DNA of 64,000 nt from assembly GCA_028864975.1 (NCBI GenBank), contig JAGWLG010000013.1, forward strand, positions 2,618 to 66,617, written 5' to 3'. The first letter of the stretch is position 1; each line of letters starts with the position of its first letter. Below, one piece after another: positions 1,599-62,366 of the stretch. The stretch is from Thermoplasmata archaeon (GTDB lineage: Archaea; Thermoplasmatota; Thermoplasmata; Lutacidiplasmatales; UBA184). A model generated the notes under the pieces. It was given only the letters and a program-made list of their open reading frames with translations, was not told the DNA's origin and made no database searches. The translations under genes and the position numbers were made by a program.

Positions 1599-2348
1599 GT
1601 GGCCCCTCCTCGAGCGCACGCCCTGGTGACCGGGGCGGCTACGGGCATCGGGCGCGCGACCGCGCTCTTGCTCGCAGGACGAGGAGATGCCATCGGGGTC
1701 CACTATCGAAGCCATGAGGCCGAGGCTCGCGCGCTGGTCGACGAGATCGTGCGGGACGGAGGAGAGGCTTTCTTGGTCCGGGCGGACCTCACTCGGACCT
1801 CGGAACTGACCTCGATGGTCGAGGAGGTCTCGCGCCACTTCCCCTCCCTCGAAAGCCTCGTCTTGAACGCGGGGGAGTACCCTCGTCGCAAGCTCGCGGA
1901 CCTCTCGGAGGAGGAGTTCGAGCGGACGCTCCGCACCAACCTGTGGGCTCCCTATGCGCTGACGCGACGGCTGCTTCCGCTCCTGCGCTCCGCTTCACCT
2001 GCGCCTGCCCGATTGGTCGTGGTCAGCAGCGTCCTCGCCTTCAACGGTAGCGAACACGGGGCGGACTACGCGTCGAGCAAAGCGGGACTGCTCGGCCTGG
2101 CGCGTTCCCTGGCCCGAGAGCTCGCCCCGGACATCCTCGTGAACGTCGTGGCCCCGGGGACGATCGATACGGCCATCATGGCCCACGAGAGCGCCCAGCA
2201 GAAGGCCGAGCGGGGTCGCCGCATCCCTCTGGGGAGGATCGGGGAGGCCCGTGAGGTCGCCGAAGCCGTGGCGTTCCTGACCTCCCCTTCCGCCAGCTAC
2301 ATGACGGGGACCACGGTCCACGTGAACGGCGGGCTCCGAATGGACTGA
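1599..2348 (+). CDS. Short-chain dehydrogenase/reductase (FabG-like 3-oxoacyl reductase family)
   Basis: 249 aa. Rossmann motif TGAATGIGRA, NAG motif (LNAGEY), catalytic S...YxxxK (SSV...YASSKAG) and the PGTIDT motif. Confidence 0.9.
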   Translation: MAPPRAHALVTGAATGIGRATALLLAGRGDAIGVHYRSHEAEARALVDEIVRDGGEAFLVRADLTRTSELTSMVEEVSRHFPSLESLVLNAGEYPRRKLADLSEEEFERTLRTNLWAPYALTRRLLPLLRSASPAPARLVVVSSVLAFNGSEHGADYASSKAGLLGLARSLARELAPDILVNVVAPGTIDTAIMAHESAQQKAERGRRIPLGRIGEAREVAEAVAFLTSPSASYMTGTTVHVNGGLRMD

Positions 2349-2363
2349 CCCAAGGAAGCGAAG

Positions 2364-3476
2364 ATGAGCGTCGAGATCGTGACCCGCTGGTTCGGGGTCT
2401 ACGCGGTGGAGAACGGAAGGATCACCCTGGCGCGTCCCTTCCCGGCAGAGAAAGCGGGTCTGCTCGAGCGCTGGGCATTGCGGCGTGAAGGCCGCATCCT
2501 TCCCGACGAGGAGGCGCTCGTCCGGGAGCTCCGTGCCCAGGGGAAGAATGAACTGCTCTCCCGCGACCGGCGGCTCTCGGTCCTCGCGGTCCACCGCGCG
2601 TTCGGCCACCTCCCCGAGATCGTCCCACCGGGGGAGGGTGGACTCACGCGCGAGATGGGCCGGGGGCTCCTGCTAGAGCAGGGACGGAAGGACCTCGCCC
2701 GCGCTTGGGACCCTTCAGTGCACCTCGAGGAGGCCGTTCGGGCGCTGAGCGACCTCGATGAAACGCTCAACCTCCTCGGGGAGCGGCTCTCGAGCTGGTG
2801 GGGGAGGGAGCGGCCGGAGGAGGCGGCAGGGGAGGAGAGCCCCAGGGCGGTCTCCGAAGCCCTCCGAAAGGAGGCGGAGCACCCCTCGGAGCTCGGACCT
2901 GGATCGCTCGCCCCCGGGCCCGAGCTCTCCTCGGCCCGCCGCTCGCTCGCGGAGCTCTGGCTCCGCTCGGAAGAGGTGCGTCGCGCCTTGGAGAAGTCGG
3001 TCGAGCTGGAGGCGCCGAGAAGGTTCCCGAACCTGACGGCCCTCCTGGGGCCGCTCCTCACAGCGCGCATGCTTTCCCAGGCCGGAGGGCTCTCTCGTCT
3101 CGCGCGGATGCCGGCAAGCACCGTTCAGGTCCTTGGGGCCGAGCGGGCGTTCTTCGAACATCTGCGCGGTCGCGGTCCCCCGCCGCGGCACGGGCTGCTC
3201 TTCCTCCACCCCTCCGTGCATACCGCTCCCCGGGCCCAGCGGGGGAAGATCGCGCGCGCGCTCGCGGGGAAGGTGGCCATCGCCTCTCGACGTGACCTTG
3301 AGGGGGTGGGGGCCCTCCCCGCGCTCTCCGAGGCGTTCGAGCGACGGCTCGCGGAGATCCGAAGGCCCCGTAAGGGCGGACCGTCCTCCACCCGCGGCCC
3401 GGCCGCCGAGGGGCGCTCGGGGGGGTCGAACCCTCAGGCCCGCGCGGAGCGCCGAGGGACCGTCACTTCCACTTGA
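2364..3476 (+). CDS. nop5: Nop5 (Nop56/58) C/D-box sRNP core protein
   Basis: 370 aa. The Nop domain is recognisable (NLTALLGPLLTARMLSQAGGLSRLARMPASTVQVLGAERAFFEHL...HGLLFLHPSV...RGKIARALAGKVAIASRRD), with a central coiled-coil-like region and an Arg/Gly-rich tail. No fibrillarin gene follows. Confidence 0.9.
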   Translation: MSVEIVTRWFGVYAVENGRITLARPFPAEKAGLLERWALRREGRILPDEEALVRELRAQGKNELLSRDRRLSVLAVHRAFGHLPEIVPPGEGGLTREMGRGLLLEQGRKDLARAWDPSVHLEEAVRALSDLDETLNLLGERLSSWWGRERPEEAAGEESPRAVSEALRKEAEHPSELGPGSLAPGPELSSARRSLAELWLRSEEVRRALEKSVELEAPRRFPNLTALLGPLLTARMLSQAGGLSRLARMPASTVQVLGAERAFFEHLRGRGPPPRHGLLFLHPSVHTAPRAQRGKIARALAGKVAIASRRDLEGVGALPALSEAFERRLAEIRRPRKGGPSSTRGPAAEGRSGGSNPQARAERRGTVTST

Positions 3477-4014
3477 CGGTGCAGCCGATCACTGAGCTCG
3501 TCGGTGTGGGGACAGGACGTCCCGCGAGACCGGCGTCCAACGCCTCTCGCAGGAACCTGTGCTTCGCCTTCGAGGGCTCCTGCCAGCTGTCGTCGAGCTT
3601 CCCCTGGAAGATGAGCCGGCGGTCCTTGTCGAAGAGTAACGGATGGGGGGTGACGAGGGCCCCATACGCCCGGGCCACGCTCTGGTCCTCGTCCCGCACG
3701 TAGGGGAACGGATAGCCCTTGGCCCGAGCGCGCTCGATCATCCTGTCCATCCGGTCGTCAGGGTAGTTGACCGTCTCGTTCGGGTTGATCATGATCGTCC
3801 CGAGCCCCTTCACGGCGTAGTCGCGGACGACCTCGACGATGCGTCCCTCCCAAGCCTGGGCGTAGGGGCAGTGGTTGCAGGAGAAGACGACCAGGAGCAG
3901 CCGAGATCGGTCGAAGTCCCGGAGTCCCCATTTCTTGCCGTCGGTCCCCGGCAGGTCGCGGAACGTCGGTGCGTGGTCCCCGACGTTGAGCTTGAAAGCG
4001 TCGAGCTCGGCCAT
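3463..4014 (-). CDS. Thioredoxin-fold thiol-disulfide oxidoreductase (AhpC/TSA-redoxin-like)
   Basis: 183 aa with the CxxC-type active site FSCNHCPYA in a redoxin-like context (LLLVVFSCNHCPY...GYPFPYVRDEDQSVARAYGALVTPH). Its end overlaps the nop5 end by 14 nt (convergent genes). Confidence 0.8.
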   Translation of the reverse strand: MAELDAFKLNVGDHAPTFRDLPGTDGKKWGLRDFDRSRLLLVVFSCNHCPYAQAWEGRIVEVVRDYAVKGLGTIMINPNETVNYPDDRMDRMIERARAKGYPFPYVRDEDQSVARAYGALVTPHPLLFDKDRRLIFQGKLDDSWQEPSKAKHRFLREALDAGLAGRPVPTPTSSVIGCTVKWK

Positions 4015-42268: not shown

Positions 42269-42688
42269 TCAGGGGACGGAGGGCGCCAAAGAGGCGAGCC
42301 GTCGGTCGAAGGTGGCGAGGCGATCTATCCGCAGCTCCCGCATCGAAGCCAGGAGCGCGGCGTCGGTGAAGCTGAGCCGCTGATCGCGGTACTTGCGGAA
42401 GACCCCCCACGCAGGCCGCATCAACGAGGTCCCGAGGGAGGCGATCGAGAGCCCCCGGAGCTCCGGAGTGGGCAACGGGAGGAGCCGGGCCGCAGCCTCT
42501 TCGAGGGCGGGGGGGTCCCTTCGGCTGCGGATCAAGGTGAAGAGCTCGTGGACCACGTGGTCCAGCACGAGGGGAGCCCCGAACTCTCGTCGACCGACAC
42601 GGTCCAGGAGCGCGGTGGCCCGTTCGTGGGCCTCATCATCATGGTTGAGCGCCCCGTAGAGCACCCCGGTGTCGAGGAGGACGCTCAT
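42269..42688 (-). CDS. vapC: PIN-domain ribonuclease toxin VapC
   Basis: The ATG at 42688 lies inside track ORF 42269..42850. PIN acidic residues are in MSVLLDTGVL, ...HELF..., SFTDAALLA and LATFDRR. It has a 4-nt overlap with the upstream antitoxin gene. Confidence 0.88.
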   Translation of the reverse strand: MSVLLDTGVLYGALNHDDEAHERATALLDRVGRREFGAPLVLDHVVHELFTLIRSRRDPPALEEAAARLLPLPTPELRGLSIASLGTSLMRPAWGVFRKYRDQRLSFTDAALLASMRELRIDRLATFDRRLASLAPSVP

Positions 42689-42960
42689 CGGAAGGTCTTG
42701 GCGATGTCGCGGTCGATATCCTCCTCGCGCGAGCGTTTCCCGGTACGCACGCATAGGCGGTGGAGCCTCTCGAGCTCCCTCTGGGTCATAGGGCGGAACG
42801 CGTCGGGTCCCAGGCGGTCCCGTTCGGCCTCGGCCAGGTCCATGACCCACGAGAGCAGGAGCTGCTGCGGGATCCTCTCGCCATACTTGGCCATGAGCTC
42901 CCCCTGGAGCCGGTCCAAGCGGTGCTTGTCGGCTTCCAGCATTTTCACGGACGTGGTCAT
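42685..42960 (-). CDS. vapB: VapB-type antitoxin
   Basis: 91 aa, small and helical, translationally coupled to vapC. Confidence 0.7.
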   Translation of the reverse strand: MTTSVKMLEADKHRLDRLQGELMAKYGERIPQQLLLSWVMDLAEAERDRLGPDAFRPMTQRELERLHRLCVRTGKRSREEDIDRDIAKTFR

Positions 42961-42980: not shown

Positions 42981-42993
42981 CAAAATATAAAGC
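42981..42993 (-). promoter_or_regulatory. TATA-like box for vapBC
   Basis: The sequence caaaatataaagc (CTTTATATTTTG on the minus strand) is centred about 26 nt upstream of the ATG at 42960. An adjacent palindrome gtagaagtttctac (42968-42981) lies between the box and the start. Confidence 0.45.
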
Positions 42994-43003
42994 TCTACAA
43001 GCG

Positions 43004-43030
43004 GGGTTCTGTCCCAGATTCGGGCCGTGG
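43004..43030. repeat. Left terminal inverted repeat
   Basis: The sequence is gggttctgtcccagattcgggccgtgg. Confidence 0.8.
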
Positions 43031-43134
43031 GCCGGTCAGGCACTCGCCCGTCCCGCGTCGGGGCGCCACCTCACCTAGCATGCGATCTCGTGGTCCCCTC
43101 CACCTTTATCCGTCGCCCACCACGTAGTTTTCCC

Positions 43135-44373
43135 GTGCCCCCCGTCGTCCTTTCCCTGACCTTCCCTGTGGCCGACCTGCCGCCCCCGGTCCGCTCGGTC
43201 ATGGCCGAGTTCCGATTGATGGTCAATCGCGGCATCCGCTTCGCCCTCGAGGAGAACAAGACCGCCCGGGGGTCCATCCCTCCCTCCTTCCGACAGACGC
43301 TCATGCGGGAGCATCGGGTGAACTCGACCCATGTCGCCGCCGCGCTCGAGGTCGCCCTCACCTGCGCCAAGGGGCACCGACGCCTCCTGCGGAAGGGGAG
43401 GGCGGGGCACGTCCCCTACTGCCGACGCCCCTTTCTGAAGACCTCCAAGTCGAGCTTTCACATCGACCCGGACACCGGGAAGGTTCGCTTATCGCTCCGG
43501 AACGGGGAGTGGGTCTCCTTCTTCGTACCCGTCTCCCAGCATGCACGGCGGACCCTCCTTGACCCGAAGGTCCGCTTGAAGGCGCTCACCCTCACCGAAC
43601 GGAAGCTCTCCCTCGCCTACGAGGTCGACGCTCCGGAGCCCTATGTCCCCGAGGCCGCCATCGCTCTCGACACCAATGAGCGCTCGCTCGACGGGGTGCT
43701 CGCGACCCCCTCGAGCTGTGAGCCTGTCGTCGTCCCCTTCCCCGAGGTCAAGAGGGTCCAGCAGACCCACTTCGAGCGCCGACGGAGACTGGGGAGGAAG
43801 AAGGCTCACGACCGCAGGGTGAAGCGGCGACTGCTCGGCCGCGAGGGAAAGCGAGAGCATGACCGGGTGAACTCCCGCCTGCACATGCTGACGAACACCC
43901 TGGTCGCCACGGCCCGCGAGAATCGGGCCGTCCTGGTCCTGGAGGACCTGAAGCCCCCCCAGGGGGGAGGTCGCGGACGCCGGCAGCGTCGTGGGCTCTC
44001 CTCCTGGCCGCAGGGGGAGCTGCACCGACAGATCCGCTACAAGAGCGCCCTGCACGGGGTGCCCCTCATCACCGTGAACCCTCGATACACGAGCAAGACC
44101 TGCCCGAGATGTGGCGTGAGAGCCGAAAGGGTGGGCAAGGTGTTCGACTGCGCGGGCTGCGGGTGGTCCTTGGACCGCCAGCGGAACGCGGGGATCAACA
44201 TCTACGCAACGGCTCGGCGGGAGACCGCCGAACTTGGAGGTCTACGGTTCGACCTCGACGCCCTGGCCAAGGATGTGGTGATCCCCCTCTACCCCGCGGG
44301 CAGCGCCGCGAGGGCACGGGAGGAGCGGACGGTCAGGGAGCCCAAGGGGACGGTCGGGCGAGGGACATCCTGA
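43135..44373 (+). CDS. tnpB: TnpB-like RNA-guided endonuclease homologue (IS200/IS605 OrfB family), third RuvC Asp replaced
   Basis: RuvC-I is IALDTNERSL, RuvC-II is VLVLEDLK, and the zinc finger is CPRCG...CAGCG. The RuvC-III region reads LDRQRNAGINIY. I chose the GTG at 43135 as start because a TTTAT box lies about 28 nt upstream; the track start is 43027. Confidence 0.9.
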   Translation: MPPVVLSLTFPVADLPPPVRSVMAEFRLMVNRGIRFALEENKTARGSIPPSFRQTLMREHRVNSTHVAAALEVALTCAKGHRRLLRKGRAGHVPYCRRPFLKTSKSSFHIDPDTGKVRLSLRNGEWVSFFVPVSQHARRTLLDPKVRLKALTLTERKLSLAYEVDAPEPYVPEAAIALDTNERSLDGVLATPSSCEPVVVPFPEVKRVQQTHFERRRRLGRKKAHDRRVKRRLLGREGKREHDRVNSRLHMLTNTLVATARENRAVLVLEDLKPPQGGGRGRRQRRGLSSWPQGELHRQIRYKSALHGVPLITVNPRYTSKTCPRCGVRAERVGKVFDCAGCGWSLDRQRNAGINIYATARRETAELGGLRFDLDALAKDVVIPLYPAGSAARAREERTVREPKGTVGRGTS

Positions 44374-44769
44374 GCCGCGGCCCGAATCGGGGACAGAACC
44401 CTCGGAAAAAGTGGCAATCAGCTCCCTACCGGCGAGGCTCCGCTCCGGTACGATGAAGACGTCGAGCTGAGGTTTGGCCCGGCTACGAAGTGCCTCCAAC
44501 TCCTTCCTCCTCGCCCTATAGAGGGCGGGAGGGACCACGACGAGAATGTCGATGTCGTGAGGAGCGGGCTCCGATGTCACGAAGCTCCCGTTGATAAGGA
44601 CAGATCCGGAGATGGCCCTGCGCTCGAGGTCCGCCAAAAGACGACGGAGCTCCCGAAGCAACTCACGACGACGTCGAGTCTGTCCGAACCGCGCCTCCAG
44701 CTCGTGGTAGGTGCAGGGCCAGACCCCGAAGGGCAGCTTCCCATCGTTGTCAAGAAGTGGAATGGTCAT
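44242..44769 (-). CDS. Nucleotidyltransferase-fold protein (DUF6932-like, from memory); 3-prime end runs into the tnpB element
   Basis: The N-terminal region is LPFGVWPCTYHELEARFG and the NTase motif is INGSFVTSEPAPHDIDILVV. From about codon 123 onward, the ORF is encoded by sequence inside the right TIR and the tnpB 3-prime end (44242-44401), so the true C-terminus is doubtful. Confidence 0.65.
   Translation of the reverse strand: MTIPLLDNDGKLPFGVWPCTYHELEARFGQTRRRRELLRELRRLLADLERRAISGSVLINGSFVTSEPAPHDIDILVVVPPALYRARRKELEALRSRAKPQLDVFIVPERSLAGRELIATFSEGSVPDSGRGSGCPSPDRPLGLPDRPLLPCPRGAARGVEGDHHILGQGVEVEP
44375..44401. repeat. Right terminal inverted repeat
   Basis: The plus-strand sequence is ccgcggcccgaatcggggacagaaccc. 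Its reverse complement, gggttctgtccccgattcgggccgcgg, matches the left repeat at 25 of 27 positions. Confidence 0.8.
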
Positions 44770-61136: not shown

Positions 61137-62366
61137 ATGCTGACCGCCGTGAAGTTCCGCCTCTATCCTTTCCCGGACCAGGCGCGGGAGCTCGACCGTC
61201 AGCTCTCCGAACTGAACTCCCTCTGGAACCACGCCCTCGAAGAGCGGTGCGCTGCGTGGAAGAAGGAGAGGCGGTCCCTCACCTTCGTCCAGCAGTGTCA
61301 GGAGCTGACCCGGTGGCGGAACTTCGACCGGGAGGGTCTCGGGAGGGTGAACGCCCAGGTCGCGCAGGAGTGCCTGGCCCGCCTGAACGACGCGTTCCAG
61401 CACTTCTTCCGCAGGGTCAAGAGCGGGGAGGCTCCCGGGTTCCCTCGCTTCAATCGGGAGACCACGTCGCTGACCTATCCCCAGGCCTACGACTCCGTGA
61501 GGCTCGTCCCTGGGAGGAACGGGACGCGAAGGCTCTCCCTGTCCAGGGTGGGGGACCTTCCGATCGAGGTCCACCGGGAGCTTCCCGCGGGCCGTACGAA
61601 GACCTGCACGGTCGAGCGGGAGGGAGACCGATGGTATGCGGTCCTGATCGTAGAGATGGCGGACCCGGTCCCTCCCCCCGACCTTCCTCCCCGCCATCCC
61701 TTGGGCGTGGACCTGGGACTCTCTCGCCTCGCCACGCTGTCGACCGGGGAGGCGGTCGAGGCCCCGAGGTTCCTCCGACGCTCGGAGGTCCAGCTGAAGC
61801 GCCAGCAGCGGAGGCTCTCGAGGAAGCGGAGGGGCTCCCACAACTGGCGGAAGCAGAAGGCGAGGGTCCAGCGGTGCCACGCGAGGGTCCGGGACCAGCG
61901 GCGCGATCTGGCGCACCAGCTCACGTCGACCTGGGCGCGAGAGCACGACCTCATCGCCTTCGAGGACCTGGACGTGAGGTCGCACCTCATGGGCCCCTTC
62001 TCCAAGTCCACCGCCGACGCGGGTTGGGGGATGCTGCGTCGGTTCGCCGAGTACAAGGAAGCGCGCCGGTCGGGCCGGTACGTCGAGGTGCCGTCGAAGG
62101 GGACGACCCAGAGCTGCTCGGCGTGCGCACGGCCGCATGACCCGCCCCTGACGCTCCGGGACCGCACGTACGAGTGCCCGTGCGGTCTGCGGCTCGACCG
62201 AGATGTGAACGCGGCGAGGAACGTGCTCGCCCGCGCCCTCGCCATCGTAGGGGGGGATACCCCCGAAGTGACGCCGGTGGAGATCGGACCTCCGGTGGCC
62301 CGCAAGGGCCGCCGCGTCCGGTCCATGAAGCAGGAACCGCCCTCGGCCGTGGGTGCGAGCACCTGA
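61137..62366 (+). CDS. tnpB: TnpB RNA-guided endonuclease (IS200/IS605 OrfB), catalytic triad intact
   Basis: 409 aa. The N-terminus is MLTAVKFRLYP. RuvC-I is PLGVDLGLSRLA, RuvC-II is LIAFEDLDV, the zinc finger is CSACA...CPCG, and RuvC-III is LDRDVNAARNVL. Confidence 0.95.
   Translation: MLTAVKFRLYPFPDQARELDRQLSELNSLWNHALEERCAAWKKERRSLTFVQQCQELTRWRNFDREGLGRVNAQVAQECLARLNDAFQHFFRRVKSGEAPGFPRFNRETTSLTYPQAYDSVRLVPGRNGTRRLSLSRVGDLPIEVHRELPAGRTKTCTVEREGDRWYAVLIVEMADPVPPPDLPPRHPLGVDLGLSRLATLSTGEAVEAPRFLRRSEVQLKRQQRRLSRKRRGSHNWRKQKARVQRCHARVRDQRRDLAHQLTSTWAREHDLIAFEDLDVRSHLMGPFSKSTADAGWGMLRRFAEYKEARRSGRYVEVPSKGTTQSCSACARPHDPPLTLRDRTYECPCGLRLDRDVNAARNVLARALAIVGGDTPEVTPVEIGPPVARKGRRVRSMKQEPPSAVGAST

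Follow-up and report, generated by a model that had tools for sequence, protein, structure and literature searches.

In a 64-kb stretch of Thermoplasmata archaeon DNA (the window, 67.8% G+C; all coordinates below are window positions), a compact element that most likely spans positions 43005-44400 carries a single gene for a TnpB-like protein, in which glutamine occupies the third catalytic position of the RuvC nuclease. We propose that this Gln-type element is a solo tnpB element bounded by inverted repeats and moved in trans by a DDE transposase encoded elsewhere, and that its protein is a rearranged, functional nuclease engaged in RNA-guided retention or homing. We put the probability of this reading at about 60%. 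In this scenario, movement would be of the cut-and-paste or copy-and-paste kind catalyzed by DDE enzymes, and the distant transposase would act in trans by recognizing the repeats. The TnpB-like protein would assemble with an omega-RNA into an RNA-guided complex whose guide is taken from the right flank of the element. Such a guide would match the unoccupied target, namely the 9-bp sequence duplicated upon insertion and the DNA downstream of it, preceded by a T-rich motif in the left flank, and the complex would thereby serve the retention or homing of the element, as do the TnpB systems of IS200/IS605. The D-E-Q site would not be dead but rearranged in a conserved manner, with some catalytic or metal-dependent function preserved. 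Finally, insertion would be aimed just upstream of promoters made of a B recognition element (BRE) and a TATA box, those of divergently transcribed genes.

The element ends with inverted repeats. Positions 43004-43030 and the reverse complement of 44375-44401 are identical at 25 of 27 positions (GGGTTCTGTCCCAGATTCGGGCCGTGG and GGGTTCTGTCCCCGATTCGGGCCGCGG), and a repeat finder stretches the two arms to 50 nt with 78% complementarity (43004-43053 and 44352-44401), the weaker inner part of the right arm lying within the gene. When the 24-nt repeat pattern was searched with up to three mismatches, just two sites were found in the 64 kb, and 0.00 were expected from 100 shuffles. The left repeat (43004-43030, plus strand) carries from 43005 the family-type terminus GGTTCTGT, and a left terminus of this type recurs at the left end of many relatives. 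The right repeat (44375-44401, minus strand) is separated by one base from the stop codon, which ends at 44373, and its family terminus ACAGAACC ends at 44400. The family termini, together with the target duplications of the relatives, thus make 43005-44400 (GGTTCTGT...ACAGAACC) the most likely true extent of the window element; the G/C pair at 43004/44401 is ambiguous, as it may or may not be part of it. No further copies of the repeat and no pairs resembling miniature inverted-repeat transposable elements were found in the window or in the loci examined. An apparent solo right end in locus L039 turned out to be merely the start of a divergent gene. In viral contigs, exact scans with a 15-mer and a 17-mer of the repeat gave 7 and 48 matches, none with the protein motifs, and were judged to be chance, as was an inverted copy of a 10-mer more than 4.5 kb away in the AT-rich viral contig L129. 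As a separate observation, members of the GGGACAGAACC subgroup show a short palindrome, CCCG-N3-4-CGGG, just inside the terminus (window positions 44375-44400 and the right ends of L016, L026, L033, L037 and L047), which might fold into a small hairpin, in the RNA or at the two ends of the element.

The relatives of the window element tell us what these repeats are. The elements measure 1344-1500 bp and hold one gene each; across 80 metagenomic loci, most are bounded by inverted repeats of 12-30 nt starting GGTTCTGT... or G/TGCTTTG..., and the right repeat ends 3-37 nt past the stop codon. One 449-kb Thermoplasmata contig carries two paralogues that lie 23 kb apart and share 83% identity; in each locus, the homology spans 2338 to 3686, its limits coinciding exactly with the inverted repeats (GCTTTGAAAYCGGAT). 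Moreover, 9-bp direct repeats abut the inverted repeats in 17 distinct loci, 11 of which show exact copies (for example CCGCTCAGC, CCTACCGGT, TCCTGGAAC, CTACCCGCT, CCTGCATAC and CTCAAGGTC). In an unbiased set of 39 distinct loci, the flank pairs were at least 8/9 identical in 14, as compared with 0% of shuffled pairings. According to these results, the homology limits of the paralogues, the conserved termini and the abutting duplications establish the repeats as true element ends, as had been supposed in a first-pass annotation made from the sequence alone. Judged by its varied flanks and fresh duplications, the family is multi-copy and mobile, and this does not suit the fixed, exapted locus that the annotation had entertained. 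Duplications of constant length around inverted repeats are the hallmark of transposition of the DDE type. Staggered cuts made by TnpB itself were considered as another source of the duplications. TnpB and Cas12 cut distally to the target-adjacent motif (TAM), whereas the duplicated 9 bp would be TAM-proximal (positions 1-9 of the presumed target), and this origin was therefore rejected. L037 and L065 share an identical 25-nt left flank and left end and have different right flanks, with a 6/9 duplication in L037 and none in L065; they may reflect recombination between copies or strain variants.

The open reading frame (ORF) runs on the plus strand from a GTG at 43135 to a TGA at 44371-44373, encodes 412 amino acids and is the sole long ORF between the repeats. 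It contains the RuvC-I motif IALDTNE with D179 (43669-43671), the RuvC-II motif VLVLEDLK with E270 (43942-43944), an intact C4 zinc finger between C323 and C342 (CPRC...CAGC, 44101-44160), D347 within LDR (44173-44175) and, at the RuvC-III position, Q349 (codon CAG, 44179-44181; motif CGWSLDRQRNAGINI). A TTTAT box (43105-43109, plus strand) lies about 28 nt 5' of the GTG. The repeats, the ORF, the box, the RuvC-I and RuvC-II motifs and the zinc finger had all been listed in the first-pass annotation, and each was found in its place. The TTTAT box is kept in the closest relatives, L001 and L002 (GGTTTATC), and the family as a whole shows just a mild A/T peak at this position (-30 to -27); the box may serve as an internal archaeal TATA box for a tnpB transcript with a short leader or none.

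With sequence libraries, the protein was placed at the edge of the TnpB family. Pfam recognized only the Cas12f1-like TNB zinc-finger domain (PF07282, 4e-20), the NCBIfam model guided_TnpB scored 99 bits for a cut-off of 100 and covered the C-terminal half only, and some homologues have, as a precomputed annotation, the N-terminal Pfam domain PF27234 'MJ0013'. Neither OrfB_IS605 nor HTH_OrfB_IS605 was found in the Gln-type ORF, whereas both are present in a second TnpB of the window. This second protein (61137-62366, plus strand) is canonical, with HTH_OrfB_IS605, OrfB_IS605 and TNB domains and a DRDVNAARNV motif, and is 28% identical to the Gln-type ORF over the C-terminal half. Despite this marginal position in the libraries, an AlphaFold2 model built with 61 homologues (mean predicted local distance difference test, pLDDT, 85.6; predicted template-modelling score, pTM, 0.77) shows a TnpB/Cas12f fold for the whole protein. 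Indeed, Foldseek matched the model over the full length to AsCas12f (template-modelling score, TM, 0.64-0.66) and to the ISDra2 TnpB (TM 0.54-0.60), and its other matches include Fanzor2, a dCas12f and Cas12m. The predicted structure thus bore out the assignment of the ORF to the TnpB family made in the first-pass annotation, and the hallmarks of the superfamily, which are a split RuvC, a TNB zinc finger and the WED/REC/RuvC overall fold, are all present in the ORF or its predicted structure.

We then considered the position of the glutamine. BLASTP against the second window TnpB set LDRQRNAGIN opposite LDRDVNAARN, and a profile of 61 family sequences searched against the PDB sequences set D-R-Q opposite N-A-D of the Cas12f 'NADYNAARNI' motif. 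As these two independent alignments agree, Gln349 occupies the position of the RuvC-III Asp, in keeping with the annotation, and the site reads D-E-Q in place of the canonical D-E-D triad. Gln349 is present in 121 of the 121 sequences of a MAFFT alignment of the query and 120 homologues (identity down to about 48%), in which the surrounding motif W-x-x-D-R-Q-x-N-A-G-L-N-I is nearly invariant. D179, embedded in an unusual L-D-T-N-E-x-S-L-D-G motif, and E270 are invariant in the alignment of 61 sequences and were found in 257 of 259 wider aligned relatives, and the window ORF is intact, with every family-invariant residue. By these alignments, the Gln replacement is a hallmark of the clade, neither a private mutation nor a sign of decay. 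Whether another acidic residue takes over was considered for two positions. Asp347, the LDR residue put forward in the annotation as a possible catalytic substitute, was rejected as a new compensator because canonical TnpBs also carry it (DRDxN). Asp186 co-occurs with Gln or His at position 349 in 157 sequences and with Asp349 in just two, and one could hypothesize that it is a relocated acidic compensator for Gln/His349.

Histidine is a competent metal ligand. More distant relatives sharing the D-x-N-E motif have Asp, His or Gln at position 349, which indicates that this position changed more than once within a functional lineage. In a sister clade of the Asp type (P0277, locus L151), the active site is D-E-D, the inverted repeats end ...AACAGAACC and the 9-bp duplication is exact (CTACGCTTC). 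In a sister clade of the His type (P0285, locus L159), the repeats are AGTTCTGTCACCTCT and AGAGGTAACAGAACC and the duplication spans 8-9 bp (TGCGCTGA). Because the Asp- and His-type elements share repeats and duplications with the Gln type, the architecture is independent of the Asp-to-Gln change; a link between the glutamine and a repeat-bounded lifestyle is not supported, and the architecture is, by this comparison, a property of a wider archaeal lineage. A side observation concerns L151, where the D-E-D tnpB is preceded by a 43-aa ORF that matches Pfam DUF7557 and that we read as ribbon-helix-helix (RHH)-like. The module of RHH-like ORF and tnpB (1305-2730 in L151, also in L152-L154) looks mobile, with its repeats and duplication.

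The lineage itself is, as far as the databases tell, large, environmentally widespread and archaeal, mostly from Thermoplasmata and Methanomassiliicoccales. A search for homologous proteins gave 262 matches, which, where named, come from Thermoplasmata, Methanomassiliicoccales or Euryarchaeota; more than 557 metagenomic stretches encode relatives with both signature peptides, and the family profile retrieved 199 cluster representatives at E <= 1e-30. A scan of genome contigs with the single protein returned one close relative only. Over codons 1-330, the ratio of nonsynonymous to synonymous substitution rates (dN/dS) is 0.18 when the window copy is compared with L002, a relative at 79% identity, and 0.10 for the two paralogues of the 449-kb contig. 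By this measure, the tnpB ORF is under strong purifying selection.

A second constraint, this time on the nucleic acid, appears at the 3' end of the gene. In a DNA alignment of 64 members, the conservation of third codon positions is about 0.5-0.6 over most of the ORF and reaches 0.75-0.84 in 44135-44344, level with that of positions 1 and 2. Likewise, dS between the two paralogues falls from 0.72 to 0.056 in the last 80 or so codons. RNAalifold, run on 66 sequences, predicted helices that carry many compensatory changes; those supported in the window element pair 44237-44242 with 44251-44256, 44283-44286 with 44318-44321 and 44292-44300 with 44306-44314, all on the plus strand, the strand that is also favored by the frequent G-U pairs and wobbles. 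With the structure held fixed, 95.9% of the alignment cells are paired, versus 39-50% when the 3' partners are slid by 1-3 columns, and the covariation score is 0.343 versus at most 0.119 after sliding; 0 of 500 shuffles attained the observed value. The folding and covariance check that had been proposed for this region thus came out in favor of a conserved structure. The region (44135-44400, plus strand) overlaps the 3' end of the ORF and reaches the right terminus with the conserved terminal ...GGGGACAGAACC. On the right, most of the 66 relatives end in ...ACAGAACC and those of one subclade in ...CCCAAAGCC; past this terminus, their sequences have nothing in common. No Rfam family matched the 3' region at gathering or permissive thresholds. 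This anatomy is omega-RNA-like, resembling the scaffold of a TnpB omega-RNA that abuts a guide derived from the flank. By analogy with TnpB elements, and from the position of the boundary between scaffold and flank, the guide would be read from 44401-44422 (plus strand), directly 3' of the right end.

The left flanks point to a recurrent target. When they were aligned on the left repeat (L010-L091), an A/T peak appeared at -20 to -16 (A+T 0.64-0.79, for a background of about 0.3-0.4), together with a TT at -12/-11 and a smaller A-rich peak at -35 to -33. Of 20 loci with sufficient upstream sequence, about 16 have a divergent ORF whose start lies 43-57 nt from the left repeat, and tnpB is always oriented away from the neighboring promoter. 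These features fit a leftward archaeal promoter with BRE, TATA box, proximal A/T element and leaderless start. Since the left flanks differ in sequence between copies, the promoter features are part of the target rather than of the element. The 9-bp duplication starts at the upstream (BRE-side) edge of the predicted promoter, and T-rich bases lie directly 5' of the duplicated 9-mer, where a TAM would be expected. A guide taken from the right flank would match the unoccupied site. The spacing may reflect a targeting mechanism or the survival of harmless insertions; its precision at the nucleotide level favors a mechanism.

The window copy conforms to this context. On the left, an A/T box (42985-42992, minus strand; ATATAAAG on the plus strand) lies 13-20 nt from the left repeat and fits the TATA box of a divergent gene (42685-42960, 91 aa), whose ATG at 42960 is 45 nt from the repeat and which precedes a PIN-domain gene. 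These two genes, directly left of the element (42269-42960, minus strand), resemble a toxin-antitoxin module of the VapBC type.

A location beside promoters, an RNA scaffold and an altered active site could also describe a nuclease-dead, RNA-guided DNA binder comparable to Cas12k, Cas12m or TldR, which would help to target the element or would regulate the adjacent promoter without cutting. The substitution of a metal-binding Asp by Gln, the conserved omega-RNA-like structure, the position of the elements directly upstream of divergent promoters and the presence of dCas12f and Cas12m among the structural matches all suit such a protein, and, through the duplication, the opening 9 nt of the presumed guide would recur beside the promoter. 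We nevertheless consider this explanation rather unlikely. The main text of the census of Altae-Tran et al. (2023, PNAS; PMC10691335) indicates that exapted dead TnpBs and Cas12s usually lose several catalytic residues, whereas D179 and E270 are almost always kept here. In addition, the glutamine is invariant rather than variable, the sister clades with His or Asp share the element architecture, and the element is mobile and multi-copy instead of being fixed beside one target gene. TldRs offer a direct comparison, as they too are derived from TnpB and combine a non-canonical RuvC with a conserved guide-RNA scaffold. Wiegand et al. are said to have found in 2024 that TldRs are immobile, linked to a fixed target gene, and degraded or truncated in RuvC. 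The Gln-type family differs in each respect, being mobile and multi-copy with one invariant catalytic position changed, and does not belong with the TldRs. We therefore retain the proposal of a trans-mobilized element with a functional nuclease.

This proposal calls for a transposase, which we looked for in the surroundings of the elements. In an all-versus-all comparison of the flank ORFs of at least 120 aa from about 90 loci (about 460 kb), there was no recurrent neighbor or transposase, and in the same flanks no Y1 transposase (TnpA) or serine recombinase recurred in cis, although such an enzyme might be supplied in trans. A screen of all flank ORFs for a YREK-type motif gave two candidates. 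One candidate partner, an IS4/IS701-like DDE_Tnp_1 ORF in L055 (749-1903, minus strand; 25.5 bits for a cut-off of 23), was rejected: it has no matching ends, and it stands where the left repeat, 5' region and initial codons of a family member should be. This ORF is part of either an unrelated insertion sequence or a chimeric contig.

One could then imagine that the TnpB-like protein, perhaps with its RNA, is itself the transposase and the element an autonomous single-gene transposon. All of the approximately 90 loci hold solo genes with no transposase nearby, the type of terminus varies together with the protein clade, clades of the Gln, His and Asp types all retain the terminal motif and the duplication, the paralogues keep intact ORFs under purifying selection, and RuvC and DDE transposases are generally known to share the RNase H-like fold class. 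However, such a transposase is without precedent, as TnpB is dispensable for the transposition of IS605 and IS607 (PMC13565253), whereas there is precedent, in the census main text, for solo TnpBs moved in trans (PMC10691335). Furthermore, the right repeat doubles as RNA scaffold, which alone would explain the co-evolution of terminus and protein, and the search for a partner transposase covered only the flanks and the window. We thus regard an autonomous transposon as improbable, and give an equally poor chance to its more specific form, in which insertion, with 9-bp duplications and at a fixed distance upstream of BRE/TATA promoters, would be performed or directed by an 'MJ0013-type' TnpB protein together with its RNA. 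If true, TnpB would for the first time be seen as a transposase or integrase, and archaea would have their first insertion sequence of this kind that targets promoters.

Several observations nonetheless weigh against an element moved in trans with a working nuclease. The side chain of Gln is a poorer metal ligand than that of Asp, which leaves room for a binding-only role, and the Asp186 pattern comes from few independent changes, the residue being perhaps the counterpart of the 'SDG' turn, which is not catalytic in ordinary TnpBs. The search, which covered the flanks and the window, yielded no partner transposase that shares the ends of the family. The type of terminus goes with the protein clade, and even very divergent clades and different archaeal phyla keep the terminal 8-mer, which equally fits a protein that recognizes its own ends. 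The window copy itself has no 9-bp duplication (left flank TACAAGCGG, right flank CTCGGAAAA). Lastly, contigs from two short-read assemblies of this genome stop at 44293 and 44290, within the conserved RNA region. These assemblies (L156, GCA_028867515.1 JAGWGG010000031.1, and L157) match the window at 100% and 99.96% identity as far as they reach, and their breaks suggest other copies that share the region, or heterogeneity.

The absence of a duplication in the window copy has a counterpart at its right junction. There, a gene for a DUF6932/nucleotidyltransferase-like protein (44402-44769, minus strand) has its 3' end cut off by the right end of the element: it matches positions 3-115 of the 142 of the Pfam model PF22014, so that about the last 27 are absent, and its frame runs into the element. 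This truncation fits the missing target duplication, and the junction may stem from an adjacent rearrangement or an assembly mis-join. A search for an empty site with the left neighbor returned only contigs of the same genome, ending inside the element.

Taken by itself, a copy that lacks a duplication and abuts a truncated gene might be a decaying pseudogene, or a fixed gene part-way to exaptation, its repeats being fortuitous or serving only to pair the 5' and 3' ends of an RNA, which the complementarity of the 50-nt arms would in principle allow. This explanation is largely refuted by the sequence comparisons, and we see very little chance for it. The ORF is intact with all the family-invariant residues, its dN/dS against the 79%-identical relative is low, the repeats coincide with the homology boundaries of the paralogues and with the duplications of the relatives, and none would be expected by chance. 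The first-pass annotation had offered the choice between a mobile element with an inactive or rewired nuclease and an intermediate on the way to exaptation. The mobile element stands, with 'rewired' as the better option; a degenerating copy or an exaptation intermediate agrees neither with the constancy of Gln349, D179 and E270 nor with dN/dS values of 0.10-0.18.

How does a repeat-bounded, trans-mobilized tnpB element relate to known systems? In prokaryotes, tnpB is known to be carried by IS200/IS605 and IS607, which lack inverted repeats and make no target duplications (PMC13565253, PMC4810608). The Gln-type family has both and therefore fits neither group. It resembles the tnpB-only IS1341 group of IS200/IS605 in its single tnpB of about 400 codons, its size of about 1.4 kb and a 3' omega-RNA-like region that extends to the right end. 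However, IS200/IS605 elements carry subterminal hairpins (PMC13565253, PMC4810608) at asymmetric, repeat-less ends and insert without duplication, whereas here the repeats measure 27-50 nt in the window copy and 12-30 nt in the relatives, and duplications flank 14-17 relatives, the window copy itself having none. In eukaryotes, Fanzors occur in repeat-bounded transposons (PMC3627910).

The census of Altae-Tran et al. bears on both the active site and the ends. Its main text describes six large TnpB branches with altered RuvC-III ('RIIIr'), some of them nearly confined to archaea, and takes the conserved alterations as a sign of retained activity (PMC10691335). As in these branches, the RuvC-III Asp of the Gln-type family is replaced consistently across the whole clade while RuvC-I and RuvC-II are kept. 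The largest altered branch in that text, RIIIr-4, has His instead of Asp, lacks the zinc finger and is linked to RHH/MazE, whereas the Gln-type protein has Gln and an intact C4 finger. As for the ends, all six DDE-associated branches of the census (DDE-1 to DDE-6) have inverted terminal repeats, and solo TnpBs sharing their ends were inferred there to be mobile in trans. The symmetrical inverted ends and a tnpB 3' end at most 250 bp from the transposon end are common to those elements and ours, the difference being that no DDE transposase was seen in cis in about 90 loci of our family. Two features expected of a solo element trans-mobilized by a DDE enzyme are found in the family: the repeats coincide with the ends, and the duplication has a fixed length (9 bp in the Gln type and L151, 8-9 bp in L159). 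IS630 makes TA duplications. This sets the Gln-type family, with its 9 bp, apart from the IS630-linked branch DDE-6 of the census main text (PMC10691335).

The duplication length and one type of terminus recall another group of DDE elements. IS903, of the IS5 family, has an 18-bp inverted repeat starting GGCTTTG and makes 9-bp duplications. The likeness to the GGCTTTG terminus type, seen in part of the family, spans only 7 nt, and the window copy is of the GGTTCTGT type; no IS5-type transposase with GGCTTTG ends was found in the flanks or the window. Literature searches on MJ0013 and on ISA1214, ISC1217 and ISM1 gave nothing relevant.

The first-pass annotation judged that nothing of the kind had been described for such archaea. 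This is true of the Gln variant as far as the literature we found goes, but archaeal TnpBs with altered RuvC-III and repeat-bounded TnpBs already figure in the census main text (PMC10691335). In that main text, neither a 9-bp duplication nor a promoter-proximal insertion is described for the RIIIr branches, and both are seen in the Gln-type family. Our literature search likewise found no TnpB element described with Gln at this position, with a 9-bp duplication or with insertion close to a promoter, the census being covered by its main text. Relative to that text, three details are therefore new: the glutamine at the RuvC-III position, target duplications of 9 bp, and insertion directly next to divergent promoters, on their upstream side.

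In most accounts, prokaryotic TnpB travels as a passenger of IS200/IS605 and IS607, and a repeat-bounded lineage would broaden the range of transposition chemistries that are paired with guide-RNA retention. It also raises the question of who moves repeat-bounded tnpB elements that have no transposase in cis. The RHH-TnpB pair of archaea is interpreted in the census main text as an immobile toxin-antitoxin module (PMC10691335), whereas the RHH-plus-TnpB relative found here is flanked by repeats and a duplication. The clades with D-E-Q, D-E-H and D-E-D sites, which share the same architecture, form a natural series for testing how far RuvC tolerates changes in its active site, and this may be relevant to compact editors and nickases. 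Finally, insertion at the edge of promoters, if it is mechanistic, would be a new mode of target selection in archaea.

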